DNA of 62,437 nucleotides, filler included, from Nitrospinota bacterium (GTDB lineage: Bacteria; JAUXIQ01): assembly GCA_030620925.1 (NCBI GenBank). It is 14 parts of 14 records of this genome, joined end to end, with 100 filler letters (N's around TTAATTAATTAA, not from the genome) between each part and the next. Parts side by side here need not be neighbours in the genome. Positions count along the whole stretch, not along the records: positions 38,231 to 42,065 come from JAUXIQ010000278.1; 13 more parts are not named here. One strand, given 5' to 3'. Position numbers and translations under genes: made by a program. Positions 1,188 through 46,027 of this stretch are shown one piece after another. The notes under the pieces were generated by a model that did not search any database, was not told the origin of the DNA, and worked only from the letters and a program-made list of their open reading frames with translations. Position 1 is the stretch's first letter; the number at the start of each line of letters is the position of its first letter.

Positions 1188-1799
1188 CTATGGCCCCGCC
1201 CACTCGATAGTCGCGTAGTGGCCGTTCCTGCCGCTGTTGTCCCATTTCAGCCCATAATCGGTAAATGTGCCCCTGGTGCTTTTGGCCACGGCCAATCGGG
1301 TGGAGGCTGGATGCGGAGCGTTATCAAGCCAGATCGGTTCCTCGGAGTCGGCTCCGGTAATGGCTTCGACCTCCATATCCAAAATATCGGGGATACTGCC
1401 GCCGCGCTTTTTCCCCTCAGATCTGTACTCGATGGGCACGTACTTGACCCCCAGAATGTTGGTGATCAAAGAGGCCAGAGCACCCATAGGGCCGCCGGCC
1501 TCGCCGCTGAAAATAGCCGCAAGCGCCTCGCGCTGTTTGTCGTCCGCCCGTTCGTCCACGTAGAGAGCCACGGTGCCGTTGCCTTCGGCCATGGGGCCGG
1601 GAGTCTGGAGGACGCTCACAACGTTCAAGCCGTTTAACTCAACGTCCCCGTATCGGCCCTCATCGATGTGGAAAAGGAGAGGGACATCGCAGTGCCCATC
1701 CTTGGGCATCGCCTGCATGCCGGAATGGATGCAAGGACACAGCACCTCGCAATTACAGTTCTCGAAATATTCCCCCTGGATGCTCCACTTTTCAGCCAT
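1188..1799 (-). CDS. DUF1326 family Cys-rich protein (copy 1)
   Basis: WSIQGEYFENCNCEVLCPC and YVDERADDKQREALAAIFSGEAGGP motifs; GGAGG SD upstream; paralogue of 121-741. Confidence 0.88.
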   Translation of the reverse strand: MAEKWSIQGEYFENCNCEVLCPCIHSGMQAMPKDGHCDVPLLFHIDEGRYGDVELNGLNVVSVLQTPGPMAEGNGTVALYVDERADDKQREALAAIFSGEAGGPMGALASLITNILGVKYVPIEYRSEGKKRGGSIPDILDMEVEAITGADSEEPIWLDNAPHPASTRLAVAKSTRGTFTDYGLKWDNSGRNGHYATIEWAGP

Positions 1800-1924
1800 T
1801 TCGACCTCCTTTTTTTGTGTTTATGGACCAAATAACCTTTTCATAATGCACCTAATATATCCTCTTTAGTGCGGAAAAACACCCCCTGTAGACAAAACCG
1901 GACAAAATTTTTTTTCTTCACCTC

Positions 1925-2041
1925 TCCGTAAGGACTTATCCCTCACGTGCCGGTTCTCAGGTGAGCACTGGGCACGTTTGTGATGAGAAACGGCCGATTC
2001 CTTCTACCTTCGGGCCTGAGCAACGGCCTTACTGCAAGCAG
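1925..2041 (+). ncRNA. Candidate structured RNA, unassigned
   Basis: Four adjacent hairpins, with a GUAA tetraloop, a cUUCGg tetraloop and G-U pairs that work only on the + strand. Confidence 0.3.
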
Positions 2042-2357
2042 ATCATTTCAACGTATTTCTCCACGCATCTCCTCTAACCGTACAAACTAAAGCCGGCGGT
2101 CCCTGCACGAAACTATCAGACGATTTACATGGAAACACCCGTTAATGCAGAAAAAAGGACCTTGGTTTTCGCCCCCGTTAAAGGCTTTACTTATGGCTCT
2201 CAACCCATTGTTCCTAAAGGGATAATCCGCCTGAACCTTGGTTTTTTGCATCTATTCTATAGAGGGGTGTATAACCACAATTCAGGAAAAAATTAACCAC
2301 AAAGGCACTAAGGCTCAAGCCCGAGGAATGTTGCAGGATACTATATGCAAAACAGAT

Positions 2358-2495
2358 GTAGGGGCAACCGTCCCGCGTGTGGCGGGATGATCGCCCTGGG
2401 CAGGCACATGGGCCTGCCCCTACAATCGCGCCTGAAAGGCGCTCCTACGATGAAATGTAGGAGCGGCATTCCGCCACGCGCGGGATGTCTCTACG
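2358..2495. repeat. Cluster of GTAG/CTAC REP-like palindromes
   Basis: GTAGGGGCAACC...GCCC, GGGCAGGCACATGGGCCTGCCCCTAC (1 mismatch to 56974-56999), GCGCCTGAAAGGCGCTCCTAC and GTAGGAGCGGCAT (also at 57087). Confidence 0.8.
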
Positions 2496-2834
2496 AGTGT
2501 TTGTATTTCACAGGTTACTAGAGTCTCCCTCCCTTGAAGGAAGGGTGGTGATGGGCAGGGATAATTCGTTAAGCAACCCCAAACCAACGTGAGCTATACT
2601 CTTGATTATTAAGACTATTCCGAGGGAAGCAACCTCTAATCGACAGATGAAGATCGTTTATAAGCTATTGTTTTCAAAAGTGTTTTAAAGTTTAGGGTTG
2701 CTTAAGCAAGGGGGTGGGTAGGGCAACCTTGCTGTCTGTTTCTGACGATTAGTGTTGAATACGAGGCGAGAATATGCGAATAATAATAGAGGGAATAAAT
2801 TTCGCTTTTCAGTCCACTAAGGGGGAAAACAGGT

Positions 2835-3872
2835 ATGATCAAGAAACAGCGACTGGGCAGGACAGGGCTTGAGGTGACCAGACTGGGGTTCGGAGGGATA
2901 CCCATCCAGAGGATCAGCGAGGAAGATGCGGTATCGGTGGTGAAGCATGTGGTTAAACAGGGCGTGAACCTGCTGGATACCGCACGCGGCTACACCAACA
3001 GCGAGGAGCGCATAGGCAAGGCTCTCAAGGATATGGACGAGAAGGTTTATATTTCCAGCAAGTCTCCCGACAAGACCGCCGAAGGCCTGCTCAAACACCT
3101 GGATATAGCCCTTGGGCTTCTCCAGGTGAACAAGATAGATATATACAACTGCCACGGAATCAGCAGCTTTGAAAACTATGATAAGGTAATCGGCCCCGGA
3201 GGCGCCCTGGAAGGGCTTAAAAAGGCCCGCGATAAGGGCCTCATAGATTTCCTGGGCTTAACCAGCCATAGCCTGGACGTGCTGGAAAAGGTCGTCGACG
3301 ATGCTCATTTCGATGTGATCATGGTCTGCCACAGCTTCCTCGAGCCAAAAGCGGAGGAAAAGGTCATCCCCACGGCAATTGAACAAGACCTGGGCATAAT
3401 GACCATGAAAAACTTTTCCGGCGGCGTTATAGAGAACGCCTCGGCAGCCCTCAAATACGCGCTGTCGACTCCCGAAGTGGTGCTCATACCCGGCATCGAC
3501 TCCATCGACCAGGCAAACGAGAACTGGGATGTCTTCATGCTGCCCGATTACACCATGACAGAAGAGGAAATCGCCGTCATGGAGGCCACCAAGGAAGAAT
3601 ATAAAGACAAGTTCTGCCGCCGCTGCGACTACTGCCAGCCCTGTCCGGAAGAAATCCCTATCCAGGCCATGATGGGCATCCGCAGCATTATAAAAAGGAT
3701 GGGAGAAGGCGCTTTCGACCGCCCCTGGGTAAAGGCCGCCGTAGAAAAGGGCAGGAACTGCACTGAGTGCGGCGAGTGCATGTCCCGCTGCCCTTACGAC
3801 CTGCCCATACCCGAACTGATCGATGCGAACCTGAAGTGGGTCGACAGCCAGTTGACACAGACGGAAAAATAG
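2835..3872 (+). CDS. Aldo/keto reductase with C-terminal 2x[4Fe-4S] domain
   Basis: LGRTGLEVTRLGFGGIPIQR and DTARGY AKR motifs; CRRCDYCQPCP and CTECGECMSRCP. Confidence 0.92.
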   Translation: MIKKQRLGRTGLEVTRLGFGGIPIQRISEEDAVSVVKHVVKQGVNLLDTARGYTNSEERIGKALKDMDEKVYISSKSPDKTAEGLLKHLDIALGLLQVNKIDIYNCHGISSFENYDKVIGPGGALEGLKKARDKGLIDFLGLTSHSLDVLEKVVDDAHFDVIMVCHSFLEPKAEEKVIPTAIEQDLGIMTMKNFSGGVIENASAALKYALSTPEVVLIPGIDSIDQANENWDVFMLPDYTMTEEEIAVMEATKEEYKDKFCRRCDYCQPCPEEIPIQAMMGIRSIIKRMGEGAFDRPWVKAAVEKGRNCTECGECMSRCPYDLPIPELIDANLKWVDSQLTQTEK

Positions 3873-15387: not shown

Positions 15388-15945
15388 TCAGCGCGGTTTC
15401 TCTTCCTTTTTTCCCAGCCATTCAACCTCCTCCACCCCGTCCATCCAGTTAGCCATACGGGCCATGGCGTAGAGAAGATCAGAGAGCCTGTTCATGTATT
15501 TCTTCAGCTCCTCCCGCACCACATCCCGAGCGGCCAGCGCCACTACCTGGCGCTCCGCTCTGCGGCAGACCGTTCTGGCCAGATGAAGGAAGGCGGCCGC
15601 CTCTCCCCCGCCGGGGAGTATAAACCGCCTCAAGGGCTTGAGCTGATTCATAAACTCATCGATGTAAGCTTCCAGCTCTTCGATCCGCTGCTGGCTCACG
15701 GCGGGGATGACATCGCTTCCCTTGCCCGGAGAGGCCAGCTCCGCCCCCACTTTGAAGAGGTCCCGCTGGATGCCATCGATTACCTCTGTGAGCCGGCCCC
15801 TGCTGCGAGTCCTGGCAACACCCAGCACGGCATTAAGCTCGTCCACGGCGCCGTAAGCCGCCACCCGACTGGAATCCTTGGCTACCCTGGTTCCGTCGAA
15901 AAGACTGGTCTCCCCCTTATCTCCTCCCTTGGTGTATATGGGCAT
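15388..15945 (-). CDS. ATP:cob(I)alamin adenosyltransferase, PduO type
   Basis: IYTKGGDKGETSL, AYGAVDELNA, FILPGG...HLARTVCRRAER and YMNRLSDLL. Confidence 0.94.
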   Translation of the reverse strand: MPIYTKGGDKGETSLFDGTRVAKDSSRVAAYGAVDELNAVLGVARTRSRGRLTEVIDGIQRDLFKVGAELASPGKGSDVIPAVSQQRIEELEAYIDEFMNQLKPLRRFILPGGGEAAAFLHLARTVCRRAERQVVALAARDVVREELKKYMNRLSDLLYAMARMANWMDGVEEVEWLGKKEEKPR

Positions 15946-38130: not shown

Positions 38131-38419
38131 NNNNNNNNNNNNNNNNNNNNNNNNNNNNNNNNNNNNNNNNNNNNTTAATTAATTAANNNNNNNNNNNNNN
38201 NNNNNNNNNNNNNNNNNNNNNNNNNNNNNNGAATCTCGCCTGCCCGTGCAAACCCGTTTTCTTTGGGCTTTTGCAACCCCCCTCCCCTTTTTCCCCTCCC
38301 TCCAGGAGGTGAAATTCGTTGACTCGAAAGATTTCGTAATCATCTACTAGATTATAGGTTTTACCCATACCCTTATACCGCCTCCGAACGTAATATATAT
38401 GCAGGCTTCGACTCACCCG

Positions 38420-38428
38420 TGTTATAAT
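38420..38428 (+). promoter_or_regulatory. Extended -10 promoter (TGnTATAAT) upstream of the molybdoenzyme
   Basis: TGTTATAAT about 90 nt before the ATG. Confidence 0.5.
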
Positions 38429-38519
38429 GACGCCCACGAACCGATGGTTCCAGAATGTGCTGTGCAGGATATACTGCATACGCCACATCTCGGATCACGC
38501 ATCATGAGGAGATCCCTAT

Positions 38520-40664
38520 ATGGAAACCGCCACCGAAGAATACAGGGTTGTCCCCGTGGCCTGCCCCCACAACTGCGGCGGGAGCTGCCTTTTAAACGCT
38601 CACGTGAGGAACGGGGTAATCGAGAGGATCAGCGGAGACGAGGCCGATGATAACGCCTCAGTTCCTCAGCTCAGAGGGTGTGCGCGGGGAAGGGCGTACC
38701 GCCATCGCGTTTACGCGCCGGACAGGCTCAGATACCCCATGATCAGGAACGGACAACGCGGAGAGGGCAGATTCAAACGGGTAAGCTGGGACAAGGCGCT
38801 GGATCTGGTGGCGGAGAGGATGGGGGAGATCAAGAAGGAGCACGGTCCCTCCGCGGTATTGAATATGTCCGCCAGCGGAACTTATCCTGCATGCCTTCAC
38901 AACACAGGCTGGGTTCATCGACTGTTGAATATGTGGGGAGGGCAGACGCAACTGGTGGGAACCTTGTCCAACGAGGGCGGATCCTTCGCGTCCAGATACA
39001 CTTACGGCACGTATGTGACCTCCAGCGATATGGACGATCTGCTCAACTCCGAGCTCATAATCATGTGGGGATGGAACCCGGCGGCGTCAATACATTCTAC
39101 TAATACCACCTGGTACCTCAGACAGGCAAAGGAGAATGGCGCCAAGATAATCGTGATCGACCCCAGACATACGGAATCCGCTGCCGCCCTGGCCGACCAG
39201 TGGATACCCGTTCGGCCTGGATCCGACGCAGCGCTGGCCGCGGCCATGGCCAACGTCATCCTGGAAGAGAGACTGGAGGACAAGGTCTTCCTGGACAAGT
39301 TTACCTACGGTTTTCAGGACTATGCCGAGTACGTCTCCGGGGAAGAAGACGGCGTCCCCAAAACCCCACGTTGGGCAGAGCAGTTGACCGGCGTGAAAGC
39401 AGACACCATCACCCGGCTGGCAAGGGAGCTGGCAGGCGGCAAACCAGCCGCGTTAATGACGGGGATGGGGCCGGGGCGCACACCGTACGGGGAACAATTC
39501 TTCCGCACTACCGCAGCCCTGGCGGCCATGACCGGAAACGTGGGAGTGCCTGGAGGGTCATCCGCCATCCCGGGGGGCGGAATCAACATGCTCCGGCTTC
39601 GGGGGATCCCCACCATATCGCCGAACCCCGCGGGGTGCACTTTGAACCCCAGTAATTGGGCCGACGCCATCCTAAAGGGGAAAGAGGGGGGCTACCCCAG
39701 TGACATAAAAATGGTCTACGGCATGGCCGGGAACCTGCTCAACCAGGTTGGAAACATAAACAAAGGGGTAGAGGCTTTAAAAAGCCTGGAGTTCATGGTT
39801 ATGCAGGAACAGTTTATGACCCCCACCGCCCGTTTCGCAGATGTCCTCCTTCCCGCCACCACCAGTTTGGAGCGGGAAGACGTGTTCAATCCCTGGGGAA
39901 TGCTGGGTAGGTACGCAGTATACTCCCATAAGGTCATCGAGCCCATGTACGAGTGCAAAAACGACCTGGAGATACTCACCCTCCTGGCGAAAAAACTTGG
40001 CATCGAAGGCTATAACGATAAGTCGGACCACGAATGGCTGAGCCAGCTGGTGGCCGATTCGGAAATAGAGGAAGTGGAGGAGTTCAAACGTTCCGGGGCG
40101 TACAGAATAAATCTCATTCAACCGAATGTAGCCCTGCAAAAGAACATTCAAAATCCGGGGAAAAACCCTTTCAGGACTCCCACAGGGAAGATTGAGATCT
40201 ACTCCTCACGTCTGGCTGAAATGGATGAACCGGAGATACCCCCCATACCAAAATACATCCCCGGCTGGGAGAGCAACGACTGTTCCGAAGCCGGCGATCA
40301 CCCCCTTCTGCTGATCACCCCTCAGTCCAAGCGGAGATGCCATTCCACCTACGACAATATCCCGCTGGTGAGTGAAATCGAACCGAACACCATCTGGATA
40401 AATCCCCAAGACGCCTCGCGTAGGGGTGTGGAAAACGGCGACCCGGTCATGGTCAGAAATGAAAGGGGCCGCACTGTCATCCAAGCCAAAGTAACCGAGC
40501 GTATAATGCCCGGCGTAGTCAGCATCGATGAAGGGAGATGGTTCACACCCGACGAGAACGGAACGGATACCGCCGGTTCCGCAAACACACTTGTACTGGA
40601 CGGCCCGTCACCCGGCGGGGCGGCTCGCTTCAACGGCAACAGGGTAGAGGTGGAAAAAGCGTAG
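38520..40664 (+). CDS. DMSO-reductase-family Mo/W-bisPGD oxidoreductase catalytic subunit, cytoplasmic
   Basis: CPHNCGGSC...C Fe-S motif, RLRYPMIR, WGWNP, TPTARFADVLLP and C-terminal dinucleotide-binding domain; no Tat signal. Confidence 0.92.
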   Translation: METATEEYRVVPVACPHNCGGSCLLNAHVRNGVIERISGDEADDNASVPQLRGCARGRAYRHRVYAPDRLRYPMIRNGQRGEGRFKRVSWDKALDLVAERMGEIKKEHGPSAVLNMSASGTYPACLHNTGWVHRLLNMWGGQTQLVGTLSNEGGSFASRYTYGTYVTSSDMDDLLNSELIIMWGWNPAASIHSTNTTWYLRQAKENGAKIIVIDPRHTESAAALADQWIPVRPGSDAALAAAMANVILEERLEDKVFLDKFTYGFQDYAEYVSGEEDGVPKTPRWAEQLTGVKADTITRLARELAGGKPAALMTGMGPGRTPYGEQFFRTTAALAAMTGNVGVPGGSSAIPGGGINMLRLRGIPTISPNPAGCTLNPSNWADAILKGKEGGYPSDIKMVYGMAGNLLNQVGNINKGVEALKSLEFMVMQEQFMTPTARFADVLLPATTSLEREDVFNPWGMLGRYAVYSHKVIEPMYECKNDLEILTLLAKKLGIEGYNDKSDHEWLSQLVADSEIEEVEEFKRSGAYRINLIQPNVALQKNIQNPGKNPFRTPTGKIEIYSSRLAEMDEPEIPPIPKYIPGWESNDCSEAGDHPLLLITPQSKRRCHSTYDNIPLVSEIEPNTIWINPQDASRRGVENGDPVMVRNERGRTVIQAKVTERIMPGVVSIDEGRWFTPDENGTDTAGSANTLVLDGPSPGGAARFNGNRVEVEKA

Positions 40665-40682
40665 CCGCCGCTTTGAAGTATG

Positions 40683-40737
40683 AAAAGTCTTGCGAATCAG
40701 GTTCGGGGGAAACCGGTTTCCGAAAAGGTTTCCCCCC
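40683..40737. repeat. Single copy of the AAAAGT...GGGGAAACC-N-GGTTTCCCC repeat
   Basis: Similar to the right arm at 26869-26922. Confidence 0.65.
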
Positions 40738-40875
40738 AATTTTTTATGACCTTTTAATAATTAGGTTTGAACAACCATCACAATGCGTTAAAATGTTTTC
40801 CTGCAACCAGGCAATTCATCTCATCTATTCATCTATCACAAACAGGAACCTTACTTAATAGAAAAGGATAAGAAA

Positions 40876-42065
40876 ATGGCAGACCATAAACCCCCTGATA
40901 AATTCGAGACCCTTTCGGGTATACCGTTGAAAAACGTCTATACCAAAGAGGACGTATCGAGCGGGGATGAGAGAGAGTGGCTGGGTTTGCCCGGTCAACC
41001 GCCTTTCACCCGCGGCGTATACCCCAACATGTACCGCCAGCAACCCTGGCGCATCTTCGAGCTGAGCGGTTACGGCACCCCTGAAGACGAGCGGGAACGC
41101 ATCCTCTACCTCCTGAGCCAGGGCGAGACCGGGTTCATCATGGAAATCGACCAGTTGACCACCTACCACATGTTCGATATCGACCACCCTGAAGTAATGG
41201 CCCGGAAAGAAGACGTCGGGCTCACCGGCCCGCCTCTCATGTCCCTGGCCGATTACGAGACGGTGCTGGAAGGCATCAACCTGGACGAAGTCTACGCCCA
41301 TCCGGGCGGCGCCGTTATCCAGTTCGCGCCCTTCGCACACGCTTCTTATTTTTCAATTGCCCAGAAGAGGGGTATACCTCTTAACAAGCTGCGGGGCACC
41401 GGCCAGAGCGACTATTTCATCAGCTACCTCTCCTGCCCCATAAAAGAGCAGATACCGCCCCGCCCCGGCCTGCGACTCAACTGCGATTTCATCGAGTACT
41501 GCGTGGAGAACGTGCCCAAGTGGGTGCCCGTTTCCATCCCCGGTTACAACGCCAGCGAGAGCGGCATCAACGCCTACCAGGAGGTGGCGGTGGTGTTGGC
41601 CAACGCCATCGAGTACGTCGAAGAGGTGCTGCGGCGCGGGCGTTTGGGCATAGACGATTTCGCCTACGGTATCGGCGGCGTGAACTTCGCCGCCGGGCGG
41701 GACTTCTTCGAAGACGTTGCCAAGATGCGCGCCGCACGGCGTATGTGGTACAAGTTGCTCTCCAAAACCTACGGCGCCACCGACCCCAAGGCCCTCAAGA
41801 TGCGTATTCACGTGGTCACCACCGGCTCCTGGATGACCTACGAACAACCGCTCAACAACATCATCCGCGGCTCACTCTACTGCCTGACGGCGGCTTTCGC
41901 AGGCGTTCAGTCAGTGGGCGTTTCATCTTTCGATGAAGCCATATCCGGTCCTTCCGAGGAAGCGCACACCATCGCCGTGCGCACCCAGCAGATAATCCAG
42001 GAGGAGAGCAACATAACCAGCGTCGCCGACCCGCTGGGAGGTTCCTACCTGGTGGAGAAGCTCAC
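40876..42065 (+). CDS. Divergent B12-dependent acyl-CoA mutase (methylmalonyl-CoA mutase family) substrate-binding subunit, 3' truncated
   Basis: TLSGIPLKNVY, PGQPPFTRGVYPNMY, FFEDVAKMRAARRMW, QPLNNIIR, RTQQII and ADPLGGSYLVE. Confidence 0.92.
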
Positions 42066-42167
42066 NNNNNNNNNNNNNNNNNNNNNNNNNNNNNNNNNNN
42101 NNNNNNNNNTTAATTAATTAANNNNNNNNNNNNNNNNNNNNNNNNNNNNNNNNNNNNNNNNNNNNAG

Positions 42168-44266: not shown

Positions 44267-45412
44267 ATGCCCCCCTTATCAGAAATGCTTAAACGTCTGG
44301 GCACCACCGAACGGTCCAAGCTTATGGCCCGCACCATACCTGAGGAGACTGCCCGCCTGCACATCGGCGATCCTTTTTTCGACACACCTGCCCACATCTG
44401 TCATGCCGCGTTGGAAGCCATGCAGGAGGGATACACCAACTACGCTCCCTTTCCCGGTGACGCCGAGCTGCGTGAAGAGACCTGCCGGTTCCTCCGGCAG
44501 GAGTGCGGCGCGGACTTCCAAACCGATGGACTGCTGATAACCAACGGCGCCACCGAGGCCATATTCTGCTCCCTGGCGGGATACATCGATCCCGGGGATG
44601 AGGTGCTGGTGTTCGACCCCACGTACTCCCTCTACGCTACCTGCGTGCGGGCCGTGGGCGGAGTGTCGGTCTCCGTGCCTCTCTCCGCACAGTTCAGGGT
44701 GATGAAGGAAGAGCTGAGGCAGCGGGTCAGCACCAGAAGCAAGATGGTAATAATCAACAACCCGAATAACCCGACGGGGATGCTTTACTCAAGGGATGAG
44801 TTGAAGGCCGTAGCTGAAGTAGCCGTGGAAAACGATCTGCTGGTCCTCTCCGATGAGGTCTATCATAAATTCGTGTATGACGGGGCGGAACACGTCAGCG
44901 CGGCCGCTCTACCGGAGCTCAGAGAACGCTGCCTGGTGGTAAACAGTTTCTCCAAGACTTACGCCATGACCGGATGGAGGGTGGGATACGTGGCGGGTGC
45001 GGAAGCGATAGTGAAACCGCTGCTCCCGCTGCATTGCGCCCTCACGGGAACAGTCAACCACCCCGCGCAGAGGGCCGCACTCACCGCTCTCCGAGGGCCG
45101 CAGGACTGCGTGGACGATATGCGCAGCGAGTATGTTTCAAGGCGGGAGAAGATGCTGAGCGCCATCCAGCGCATCGAGGGGTTATCCTGCATACCACCAG
45201 ATGGCGCCTTCTACGTCTTCTGCAAATTCGACCTGCCTCTGACGTCCGCAGAGCTCACCGAGGAGTTAATCAACCGGGGAGTGGCGGTGCGCAGCGGAAC
45301 GGAATACGGGCCTTGCGGCGAAGGGCACATCCGCCTGGCTTTCACACCCCCGGCCCTGGAAATCGAGGAAGGTATGGAACGGCTGGGTAAGGCTTTTCGG
45401 GAGCTGAAATAG
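44267..45412 (+). CDS. PLP-dependent aminotransferase class I/II
   Basis: NNPNNPTG, SDEVY and SFSKTYAMTGWRVGY. Confidence 0.95.
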   Translation: MPPLSEMLKRLGTTERSKLMARTIPEETARLHIGDPFFDTPAHICHAALEAMQEGYTNYAPFPGDAELREETCRFLRQECGADFQTDGLLITNGATEAIFCSLAGYIDPGDEVLVFDPTYSLYATCVRAVGGVSVSVPLSAQFRVMKEELRQRVSTRSKMVIINNPNNPTGMLYSRDELKAVAEVAVENDLLVLSDEVYHKFVYDGAEHVSAAALPELRERCLVVNSFSKTYAMTGWRVGYVAGAEAIVKPLLPLHCALTGTVNHPAQRAALTALRGPQDCVDDMRSEYVSRREKMLSAIQRIEGLSCIPPDGAFYVFCKFDLPLTSAELTEELINRGVAVRSGTEYGPCGEGHIRLAFTPPALEIEEGMERLGKAFRELK

Positions 45413-46027
45413 ATGAGGGAACAGGGTCGGGCCAGGGATAAATGGAACCGCAATTCAGCGTTATACGACCTGTTCACCTTCATGGAGGTGCGAGGGAAGA
45501 ACGCCGAGGTGCGGGCGGAGATGCTGAAAGAAACGAGAGGCCGGATACTTGAAGTGGGGATAGGCACGGGGCACAGCATAGCGTTCTTTCCTGAGGGGAG
45601 TGAGGTGGTAGGAATCGACATCAGCGAAAAGATGCTGTGCAAAGCCAAAGCTAAAACGGAAGCTCAAAAAGGGAGACCGGCTCTGCTGAACATGGATGCT
45701 GAAAAGATGGGTTTCAAGGACAACTCTTTCGATACCGTGGTCAGCACCTGCGTCTTCTGTTCCGTGCCGGACCCGGTGGAGGGCCTCTCAGAAATAAAGC
45801 GAGTGCTCAAACCGGACGGCCGCCTCCTGATGTATGAACACATGATAAGCCGCAACCCTTTGCTGGCGCTCATGCTGAACGCCATGAACCCCTTCGTTTC
45901 CCGGATCATGGGCTCTAACGTAAACCGGGACACCGTGGGGAACATAGTAACAGCAGGCTTGAGGGTGACAAGGGAGAGGAACGTCCGCTTCTTCGATATC
46001 TTCAGACGTATCGACGCAACACACTGA
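45413..46027 (+). CDS. Class I SAM-dependent methyltransferase (UbiE/PmtA-like)
   Basis: ILEVGIGTG, FDTVVSTCVFCSVPDP and RVLKPDG. Confidence 0.9.
   Translation: MREQGRARDKWNRNSALYDLFTFMEVRGKNAEVRAEMLKETRGRILEVGIGTGHSIAFFPEGSEVVGIDISEKMLCKAKAKTEAQKGRPALLNMDAEKMGFKDNSFDTVVSTCVFCSVPDPVEGLSEIKRVLKPDGRLLMYEHMISRNPLLALMLNAMNPFVSRIMGSNVNRDTVGNIVTAGLRVTRERNVRFFDIFRRIDATH

Follow-up and report, generated by a model that had tools for sequence, protein, structure and literature searches.

The last gene on one contig within a 62,437-nucleotide stretch of DNA (spacers included; hereafter the window) from a Nitrospinota bacterium (assembly GCA_030620925.1) encodes an acyl-coenzyme A (acyl-CoA) mutase of the catalytic type, which is genuine, conserved and part of an uncharacterised clade. 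It is probably the large subunit, bearing the substrate-binding TIM barrel, of a two-component, adenosylcobalamin (AdoCbl)-dependent enzyme, whose clade is distinct and widespread. The window consists of 14 contigs of one 445-contig genome bin (2.5 Mb, 89% complete) joined by artificial spacers (44 N, TTAATTAATTAA, 44 N), with the mutase gene located on contig C353 (window 38231-42065). Its open reading frame (ORF) begins with an ATG at 40876 and genuine sequence stops at 42065, where a spacer begins; the listed stop codon at 42117 is a product of reading through the N of that spacer. As the contig end cuts the gene, only residues 1-396 of about 543 are present, taking full-length relatives as the yardstick, one of which (P0008) has 90% identity to the fragment across the 396 residues.

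The fragment is a member of the AdoCbl-dependent acyl-CoA mutase superfamily, large subunit, possessing matches to PF01642 (MM_CoA_mutase, E-value 1.1e-113, 381 bits against a cut-off of 22.1) and TIGR00641 (334.7 against a cut-off of 303.8). Both scores exceed curated cut-offs and bear out the methylmalonyl-CoA mutase (MCM) family scaffold which a preliminary description of this DNA had claimed. The six altered motifs named there were all located, these being WRIFELSGY (residue 58), GFIMEID (86), GTGQSDYFIS (174), IPGYN (221), HVVTTG (312) and QSVGVS (345). Residue equivalences were drawn from HMMER alignments to HcmA (4r3u), from 2-hydroxyisobutyryl-CoA mutase (HCM), and to human MUT, with P0008 aligned to MutB of P. 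shermanii (1req/5req), for which residue numbers are the chain index plus 1. By these, Thr85 corresponds to Arg59, Arg87 to Phe61, Gln88 to Glu62, Tyr89 to Leu63, Ala116 (Asp117 in HCM) to Glu90, Ile196 to Gly176, Arg207 to Cys187, His244 to Asn225, Gln330 to Val314 and the histidine of QSLHTN to Gly348. The exchanges first described at Tyr89, at the Arg-Gln preceding it (Phe-Glu here) and at His244 therefore stand. The placing of Cys187 at the Arg207 position, also proposed there, is found in the HMMER alignments but is good only to about two residues, as a one-residue indel adjoins it and MAFFT gaps the region.

The catalytic and specificity roles of these positions are taken to be those of MCM and HCM. 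Tyr89, Arg207 and His244 are presumably the hallmark residues of MCM, while those of HCM are taken to be Ile90 and Asp117 with His244 retained, the Asp117 position presumably being where the hydroxyl of the substrate is read. In isobutyryl-CoA mutase (ICM) and IcmF, Tyr89 is assumed to be replaced by Phe and Arg207 by Gln.

The rebuilt pocket, which comprises about ten positions, is conserved across the clade and is under strong purifying selection. Relatives were the 120 best matches in a collection of 5.8 billion proteins, 55-93% identical and about 540 residues long. Among the query and these matches, Arg59 and Asn225 are kept in 121/121, Phe61, Leu63, Gly176 and Gly348 each in 120/121 and Glu90 in 119/121. 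Cys187 is less fixed (87/121), and two pocket sites vary clade-wide as Gln/Glu62 and Val/Leu314. Comparison with the orthologue of a sister genome (G001, locus L013) gave a ratio of nonsynonymous to synonymous substitution (dN/dS) of 0.07 over 396 codons, with proportions of differences of 0.062 (pN) and 0.52 (pS). A non-catalytic or degenerate copy, be it a scaffold of the beta type, a regulatory protein or a paralogue in decay, would be in keeping with the loss of the canonical catalytic residues, with the abundance of mutase genes in this genome and with the incomplete state of the gene. Against decay, which the preliminary description had itself entertained, are the low dN/dS, the near-invariance of the replacement residues and the position of the truncation, exactly at a contig end.

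The protein is also a catalytic-type large subunit rather than a beta-type one. Against TIGR00642, the MutA model, it scores 131 where the cut-off is 617. An AlphaFold model of P0008 (pLDDT 81.4, pTM 0.86) aligns with HcmA 4r3u at a TM-score of 0.90-0.91 (root mean square deviation 2.4 Å) and with MCM alpha chains at 0.86-0.89, but with MutA chains at 0.59-0.69 only. Eighty gene loci were listed (at least 80 exist), of which 22 encode a WRIF[QE]L protein and 57 are other mutase loci, the remaining one being L037. In 22/22 of the listed family loci a small B12-binding protein lies directly downstream on the same strand. The neighbours in 21 of the 22 (L052 was left out) comprise 184 ORFs, none of which was a second PF01642 protein. 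These results tell against the non-catalytic beta subunit which had been considered from the outset, and a non-catalytic or degenerate copy of any kind is regarded as very improbable. The closest orthologue (L013) was considered as an orphan large subunit and rejected, since its small subunit was found (Table 1).

The small subunit carries a mark of its own. The DxHxxG motif reads DGHWRG in 22/22 of the listed family small subunits, with Trp for the usual Asp. The same motif is present at L037 (57% identity), which is counted with neither set of loci. The other 57 listed mutase loci have DGHDRG (25), DAHDRG (1) or no sequence in which the pattern was found (31), with no instance of DGHWRG, and three reference clusters have DGHDRG. 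The large and small subunits have co-varied.

In a FastTree tree of 167 rows, rooted at the midpoint only, the query was joined by 17 paralogues of its own genome, 14 members of the family, four references and 131 representatives, these last having 480 residues or more after 18 shorter ones had been set aside. The references are ScpA of E. coli, Xaut_5043, and the large subunits of HCM from M. petroleiphilum PM1 and X. autotrophicus Py2; no reference for ICM (IcmA), Ecm, RcmA or IaaG is among the rows. Xaut_5043/5044 of X. autotrophicus Py2 is taken here to be the isovaleryl-CoA/pivalyl-CoA mutase (PCM). The family, of 19 rows, is recovered as a clade whose local support is 100%. Together with a sister group of three (own-genome paralogue C259, P0130 and P0145) it makes up a 22-row clade, also with 100% support, which is split from the 145 rows holding all four references. 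Clustering with a characterised subfamily, which the preliminary description had named as the outcome that would undo its reading, was thus not seen with respect to ScpA, HCM or Xaut_5043. The last of these groups with own-genome paralogue C398, away from the query.

A search of 1.84 billion representatives at 50% identity gave scores of 575, 504 and 420 bits, then 338, with the rest below 330; given the drop from 420 to 338 bits, the family is considered discrete. Its carriers belong to at least six phyla, marine Halieaceae included, with the genes lying in catabolic clusters. A metagenome scan provided one close relative (L096, 67% identity) on a 2.9 kb contig which ends right past the gene, and all that the ESM Atlas gave was clusters under the general label 'methylmalonyl-CoA mutase'. 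In the full-text literature no paper was found that deals with a clade of mutases having these residues, much subscription literature being outside the reach of the search. How unusual the changes are depends on the residue. Of the 131 representatives at 50% identity that lie nearest, few (3/131) have Phe where MCM has Arg87. In one respect the changes are less unusual than first supposed, as the loss of His244 is common, with His in 59, Asn in 23 and Asp in 11, and the full Arg-Gln-Tyr...His signature is present in 23/131. As this loss is common in uncharacterised mutase clades, the family is best regarded as one well-defined new clade among many.

Among the characterised enzymes, HcmAB of Aquincola tertiaricarbonis (4r3u) is the best solved relative, with 283 bits for the fragment and 368 bits for P0008. 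The likeness extends to a split into large subunit and B12-binding small subunit (about 135 residues), to a cluster which also encodes an acyl-CoA ligase and a chaperone of the MeaB type, and to an acidic residue at the Asp117 position, which is Glu90 in the clade. However, HCM has Thr-x-Arg-Gln-Ile, Tyr-His, His-x-Gln and QSLHT, where the clade has Arg-x-Phe-Gln/Glu-Leu, Tyr-Asn, His-x-Val/Leu and QSxGV, while its small subunit has DGHDRG instead of DGHWRG. The regulators also differ, being of the GntR type in hcm clusters and of the TetR type in clade loci. The ligase linked to the clade has no significant similarity to the 2-HIBA-type ligase of the HCM cluster (best BLASTP E-value 0.32). 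Clusters orthologous to that of HcmAB lie on plasmids in both M. petroleiphilum PM1 and X. autotrophicus Py2. Identity as HCM was rejected on the basis of Leu63, Glu90 and Asn225, the separate tree clade and the unrelated ligase.

Xaut_5043/5044 resembles the clade in its two subunits and in the MeaB-like gene, ligase and TetR regulator of its cluster. Its large subunit also has Leu at the Tyr89 position, a QSDYIS-like stretch for QNDILKE and no Arg at the Arg207 position. Unlike the clade, it keeps Arg87-Gln88, His244 (as Gln-His), HGQTSG and QSMHT, with DGHDRG in the small subunit, and its identity to the clade is 37-38% at most. Identity as PCM was rejected, as Arg87-Gln88 and His244 are replaced in the query, which lies in a separate tree clade from Xaut_5043.

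With MCM (P. shermanii MutB, human MMUT, E. coli ScpA) the clade has in common the superfamily, the fold and the support by B12, MeaB and adenosyltransferase, but Tyr89, Arg207, His244, Arg87, Gln88 and Gln330 are all replaced and the B12 domain is on a separate protein. Identity as methylmalonyl-CoA mutase (EC 5.4.99.2) was rejected given Leu63, Cys187 and Asn225 and a score of 274 against 876 for the NF006944 equivalog, and this database label is almost certainly wrong for the clade's substrate. Isobutyryl-CoA mutase/IcmF was rejected likewise (Leu63 and Cys187; NF045497, 112 against 1500), IcmF chains matching the fragment with 98 bits only, over residues 198-396.

Further acyl-CoA mutases are ethylmalonyl-CoA mutase (ECM), RCM from Kyrpidia and IaaGH, the phenylsuccinyl-/benzylmalonyl-CoA mutase. 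The characterised specificities of such mutases are not known to exceed about half a dozen (MCM, ICM/IcmF, ECM, HCM/RCM and PCM), each of which opened a pathway or a biocatalytic use. An active mutase of a separate clade could have arrived convergently at one of these, acting on pivalyl-/isovaleryl-, isobutyryl- or 2-hydroxyisobutyryl-CoA. Two features shared with Xaut_5043, taken above to be PCM, point in that direction, namely the QSDY(F)IS stretch and a Leu in place of Tyr89, as does the acidic Glu90 where HCM has Asp117. RcmAB is described as only distantly related to HcmAB and as acting on the same substrate (PMC7176365), so that distant clades can share substrates. The substrates of ECM and IaaGH have a carboxylate group, and hcl is part of rcm clusters (PMC7176365, PMC8360864), which bears only indirectly on a placement of the clade with these enzymes; IaaGH is named as an acyl-CoA mutase in PMC8360864. 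Nevertheless, at least eight pocket positions are unlike those of each characterised enzyme compared, and the separate tree position, the dissimilar ligase and the TetR rather than GntR regulator also argue against a duplicated known activity, which is judged unlikely.

For the two-component mutase which is favoured here, the following mode of action is proposed. AdoCbl would be bound base-off/His-on through the DGHWRG of the small subunit, in which the cobalt-ligating His is kept; a 5′-deoxyadenosyl radical would be made, and the thioester group would be shifted between neighbouring carbons of the acyl-CoA. In this way an acid whose branching blocks beta-oxidation could be turned into a degradable one. 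With Asn225 in place of the general-acid His244, the carbonyl of the thioester may be polarised by a hydrogen bond instead of by partial protonation. The substrate is expected to be other than methylmalonyl-, isobutyryl-, 2-hydroxyisobutyryl- or pivalyl-CoA. An uncharged, bulky and branched acyl group would be favoured, because Tyr89 is absent, position 207 and those adjoining it are without Arg, and Leu63 and QSDY(F)IS are PCM-like. At 176, 314 and 348 the residues are smaller or hydrophobic, and they likewise suggest a bulkier uncharged branched acyl group, in line with the bulkier or non-carboxylate substrate proposed in the preliminary description. The invariant Glu90, at the Asp117 position of HCM, would possibly read a polar substituent on the substrate, and it seems to leave room for a hydroxylated or even a cationic one.

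It is also conceivable that the clade carries out AdoCbl radical chemistry on a CoA ester which is not a 1,2-shift of the thioester, for instance an elimination, or a shift in which a different group migrates. Such a change might have been allowed by the loss of residues presumed to assist the classical rearrangement (His244) or to lie near the cofactor, with Asn conserved in place of His244, Val/Leu in place of Gln330 and Gly in place of the His of QSLHTN. It would also suit such a change that, among the listed loci, only the small subunits of the clade have a Trp beside the cobalt-ligating His. This possibility is considered quite remote, since it is without precedent in the superfamily, the ligase, hydratase, dehydrogenase and thiolase neighbours fit an isomerase feeding beta-oxidation, and Asn at the His244 position is common elsewhere, as noted for the representatives.

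Several observations weigh against a novel two-component isomerase. The mutase gene is incomplete in this assembly and a DGHWRG small subunit was not found in any frame of its own genome, which has seven HcmB-like small subunits with at most 48% identity to that of G001. As none of these has the motif or a closer resemblance, the partner has most likely been lost at the contig break, together with the 3′ end of the gene. A Lys or Arg at position 190, beside the indel near Arg207, is kept in 109/121 family members and could still clamp a carboxylate. From work on MCM mutants, the exchange of His244 for Asn would be expected to slow the classical rearrangement. The loci which provide the neighbourhoods are 48-57% identical to the window protein, with many from related Halieaceae; these are not independent, and their context is transferred to the fragment with caution. 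The two informative contexts of the close subclade (L013 and contig C353) are without ligase or MeaB. Finally, both the substrate and the isomerase chemistry itself are inferred.

Attempts to recover the missing part support the loss at the contig break. With tblastn against the whole genome, the close full-length relatives P0007, P0008 and P0010 matched only C353 at 89-93%, the next match being a paralogue at 44-45%, and no orthologue-level match was obtained to their residues 397-543, which correspond to the last 147 or so codons of the gene. The start of contig C73, which holds a PF01642 piece (profile positions 375-512), was considered as the missing C-terminus and rejected, since there is no orthologue-level tblastn match past residue 396. 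The search for a downstream partner advocated in the preliminary description succeeded in part, with a DGHWRG small subunit and MeaB present in related loci but no DGHWRG small subunit assembled in this genome.

The genome is rich in related genes, having 26 PF01642 matches, which amount to about 20 large-subunit genes in 2.5 Mb, and the same-family genome G001 also has 26 PF01642 candidates. Contigs with paralogues include C122, C259, C282, C311, C330, C363, C374, C398 and C439. His244 is kept in 6/17 long paralogues and the canonical MCM signature occurs only in C176. There is about an even chance that the clade represents a new AdoCbl isomerase whose radical site has been re-tuned and whose acyl-CoA substrate is without precedent. 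In this deep-branching lineage it would then be part of an arsenal of some 20 paralogues with which the beta-oxidation of branched and otherwise recalcitrant acids is unblocked. The features which suggest such a re-tuned site are the absence of the general-acid His, the invariant Glu, the aromatic-rich pocket and the Trp beside the cobalt-ligating His. With its conserved pair of subunits and the diagnostic motifs WRIF[QE]LSG..GYN and DGHWRG, the clade is a sharply defined target, and it bears on the mechanism by which the rearrangement runs without His244. To judge from the expansion of paralogues, certain uncultured lineages may rely on B12-dependent skeleton rearrangement as a major means of catabolism. 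Alongside about 20 large and about 8 small subunits, the genome has a single MeaB.

Another uncharacterised mutase type is conserved in both genomes of the lineage, namely the sister-clade paralogue (44-45% identity) at G000:C259:740-2368 (+), with its counterpart at G001:C33:4588-6174 (-). It has Thr-Arg-Arg-Tyr at the Tyr89 region and Tyr-Ser at the His244 region, and in G001 it adjoins a small subunit.

The features of the window and of related loci are given in Table 1. In the Halieaceae/Luminiphilus loci a layout recurs in which a receptor, ligase, TetR regulator and iron alcohol dehydrogenase (Fe-ADH) are followed divergently by the large subunit, small subunit, MeaB and hydratase. At L013 the context is instead an Rrf2 regulator, the mutase (1449..3080) and the small subunit, followed by unrelated genes. 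Assigning a substrate from the NCBIfam names of the neighbours was tried and abandoned, as the names were merely those of ligases, hydratases and dehydrogenases in general, from matches which stayed below cut-off. With regard to the cofactor, the PduO-type adenosyltransferase reported in the preliminary description on another contig is real (C347) and, judged by its family, would supply AdoCbl. The genome has a second copy of this enzyme (C87), and its MeaB is encoded on C209.

Table 1. Features of the window and of loci related to the mutase gene (positions are those of the window unless a locus or contig is named; neighbour counts are for the 21 listed family loci scanned with Pfam).
Feature	Position	Strand	Basis or remark
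DmsA/YnfE-like molybdopterin oxidoreductase, 714 residues, same contig, upstream	38520..40664	+	PF00384, PF01568, PF04879
Spacer upstream of mutase, 211 bases	40665..40875	+	Without known RNA family
Acyl-CoA mutase large subunit, 'WRIF[QE]L / GYN' clade, 5′ part	40876..42065	+	Translation, Pfam/NCBIfam, PDB alignments
Codon of Arg59	41050-41052	+	
Codon of Phe61	41056-41058	+	
Codon of Leu63	41062-41064	+	
Codon of Glu90	41143-41145	+	
Codon of Gly176	41401-41403	+	
Codon of Cys187	41434-41436	+	
Codon of Asn225	41548-41550	+	
Codon of Val314	41815-41817	+	
Codon of Gly348	41917-41919	+	
Artificial junction C353/C354	42066..42165	.	44 N, TTAATTAATTAA, 44 N
PduO-type ATP:cob(I)alamin adenosyltransferase	15451..15939 = G000:C347:4280-4768	-	PF01923, E-value 1.9e-61
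Small subunit of closest orthologue, 136 residues	L013 3329..3739	+	98 bits to HcmB (4r3u_C)
Neighbour: AMP-binding acyl-CoA ligase			17/21 listed loci
Neighbour: TetR regulator			10/21 listed loci
Neighbour: MeaB			9/21 listed loci
Neighbour: TonB-dependent receptor			9/21 listed loci
Neighbour: Fe-ADH			8/21 listed loci
Neighbour: enoyl-CoA hydratase			6/21 listed loci
Neighbour: acyl-CoA dehydrogenase			4/21 listed loci

Upstream of the mutase on the same contig, the molybdopterin oxidoreductase scores 655.7 against TIGR02166, under the cut-off of 777.7. It possesses an N-terminal Cys-x3-Cys-x3-Cys cluster and is without a twin-arginine leader, and is therefore probably cytoplasmic. This molybdoenzyme was considered as a partner of the mutase and rejected, being a neighbour in 0/21 of the other listed loci scanned. 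An Rfam scan of 38231-42065 (E-value of 0.1 or less) gave no match to a cobalamin riboswitch or to any other Rfam family.

Two loci of Acidimicrobiia type (L036 and L030 12112..15205) have the mutase pair followed by Xsc, a sulfoacetaldehyde acetyltransferase which is over its NCBIfam cut-off in both, and a class III aminotransferase; the Xsc and aminotransferase pair looks like an unrelated taurine-degradation module. Within the window, the end of contig C352 (37461..38130, +) holds a gene for an AMP-binding acyl-CoA ligase which is cut by the contig end. It stands beside the mutase contig because the contigs were joined artificially, and no linkage is implied. On the other side, the start of contig C354 (42183..44200, +) encodes the C-terminal 105 residues of a hydantoinase/oxoprolinase A followed by a complete hydantoinase B of 566 residues, and further on (44267..46027) a class I/II aminotransferase and a methyltransferase.

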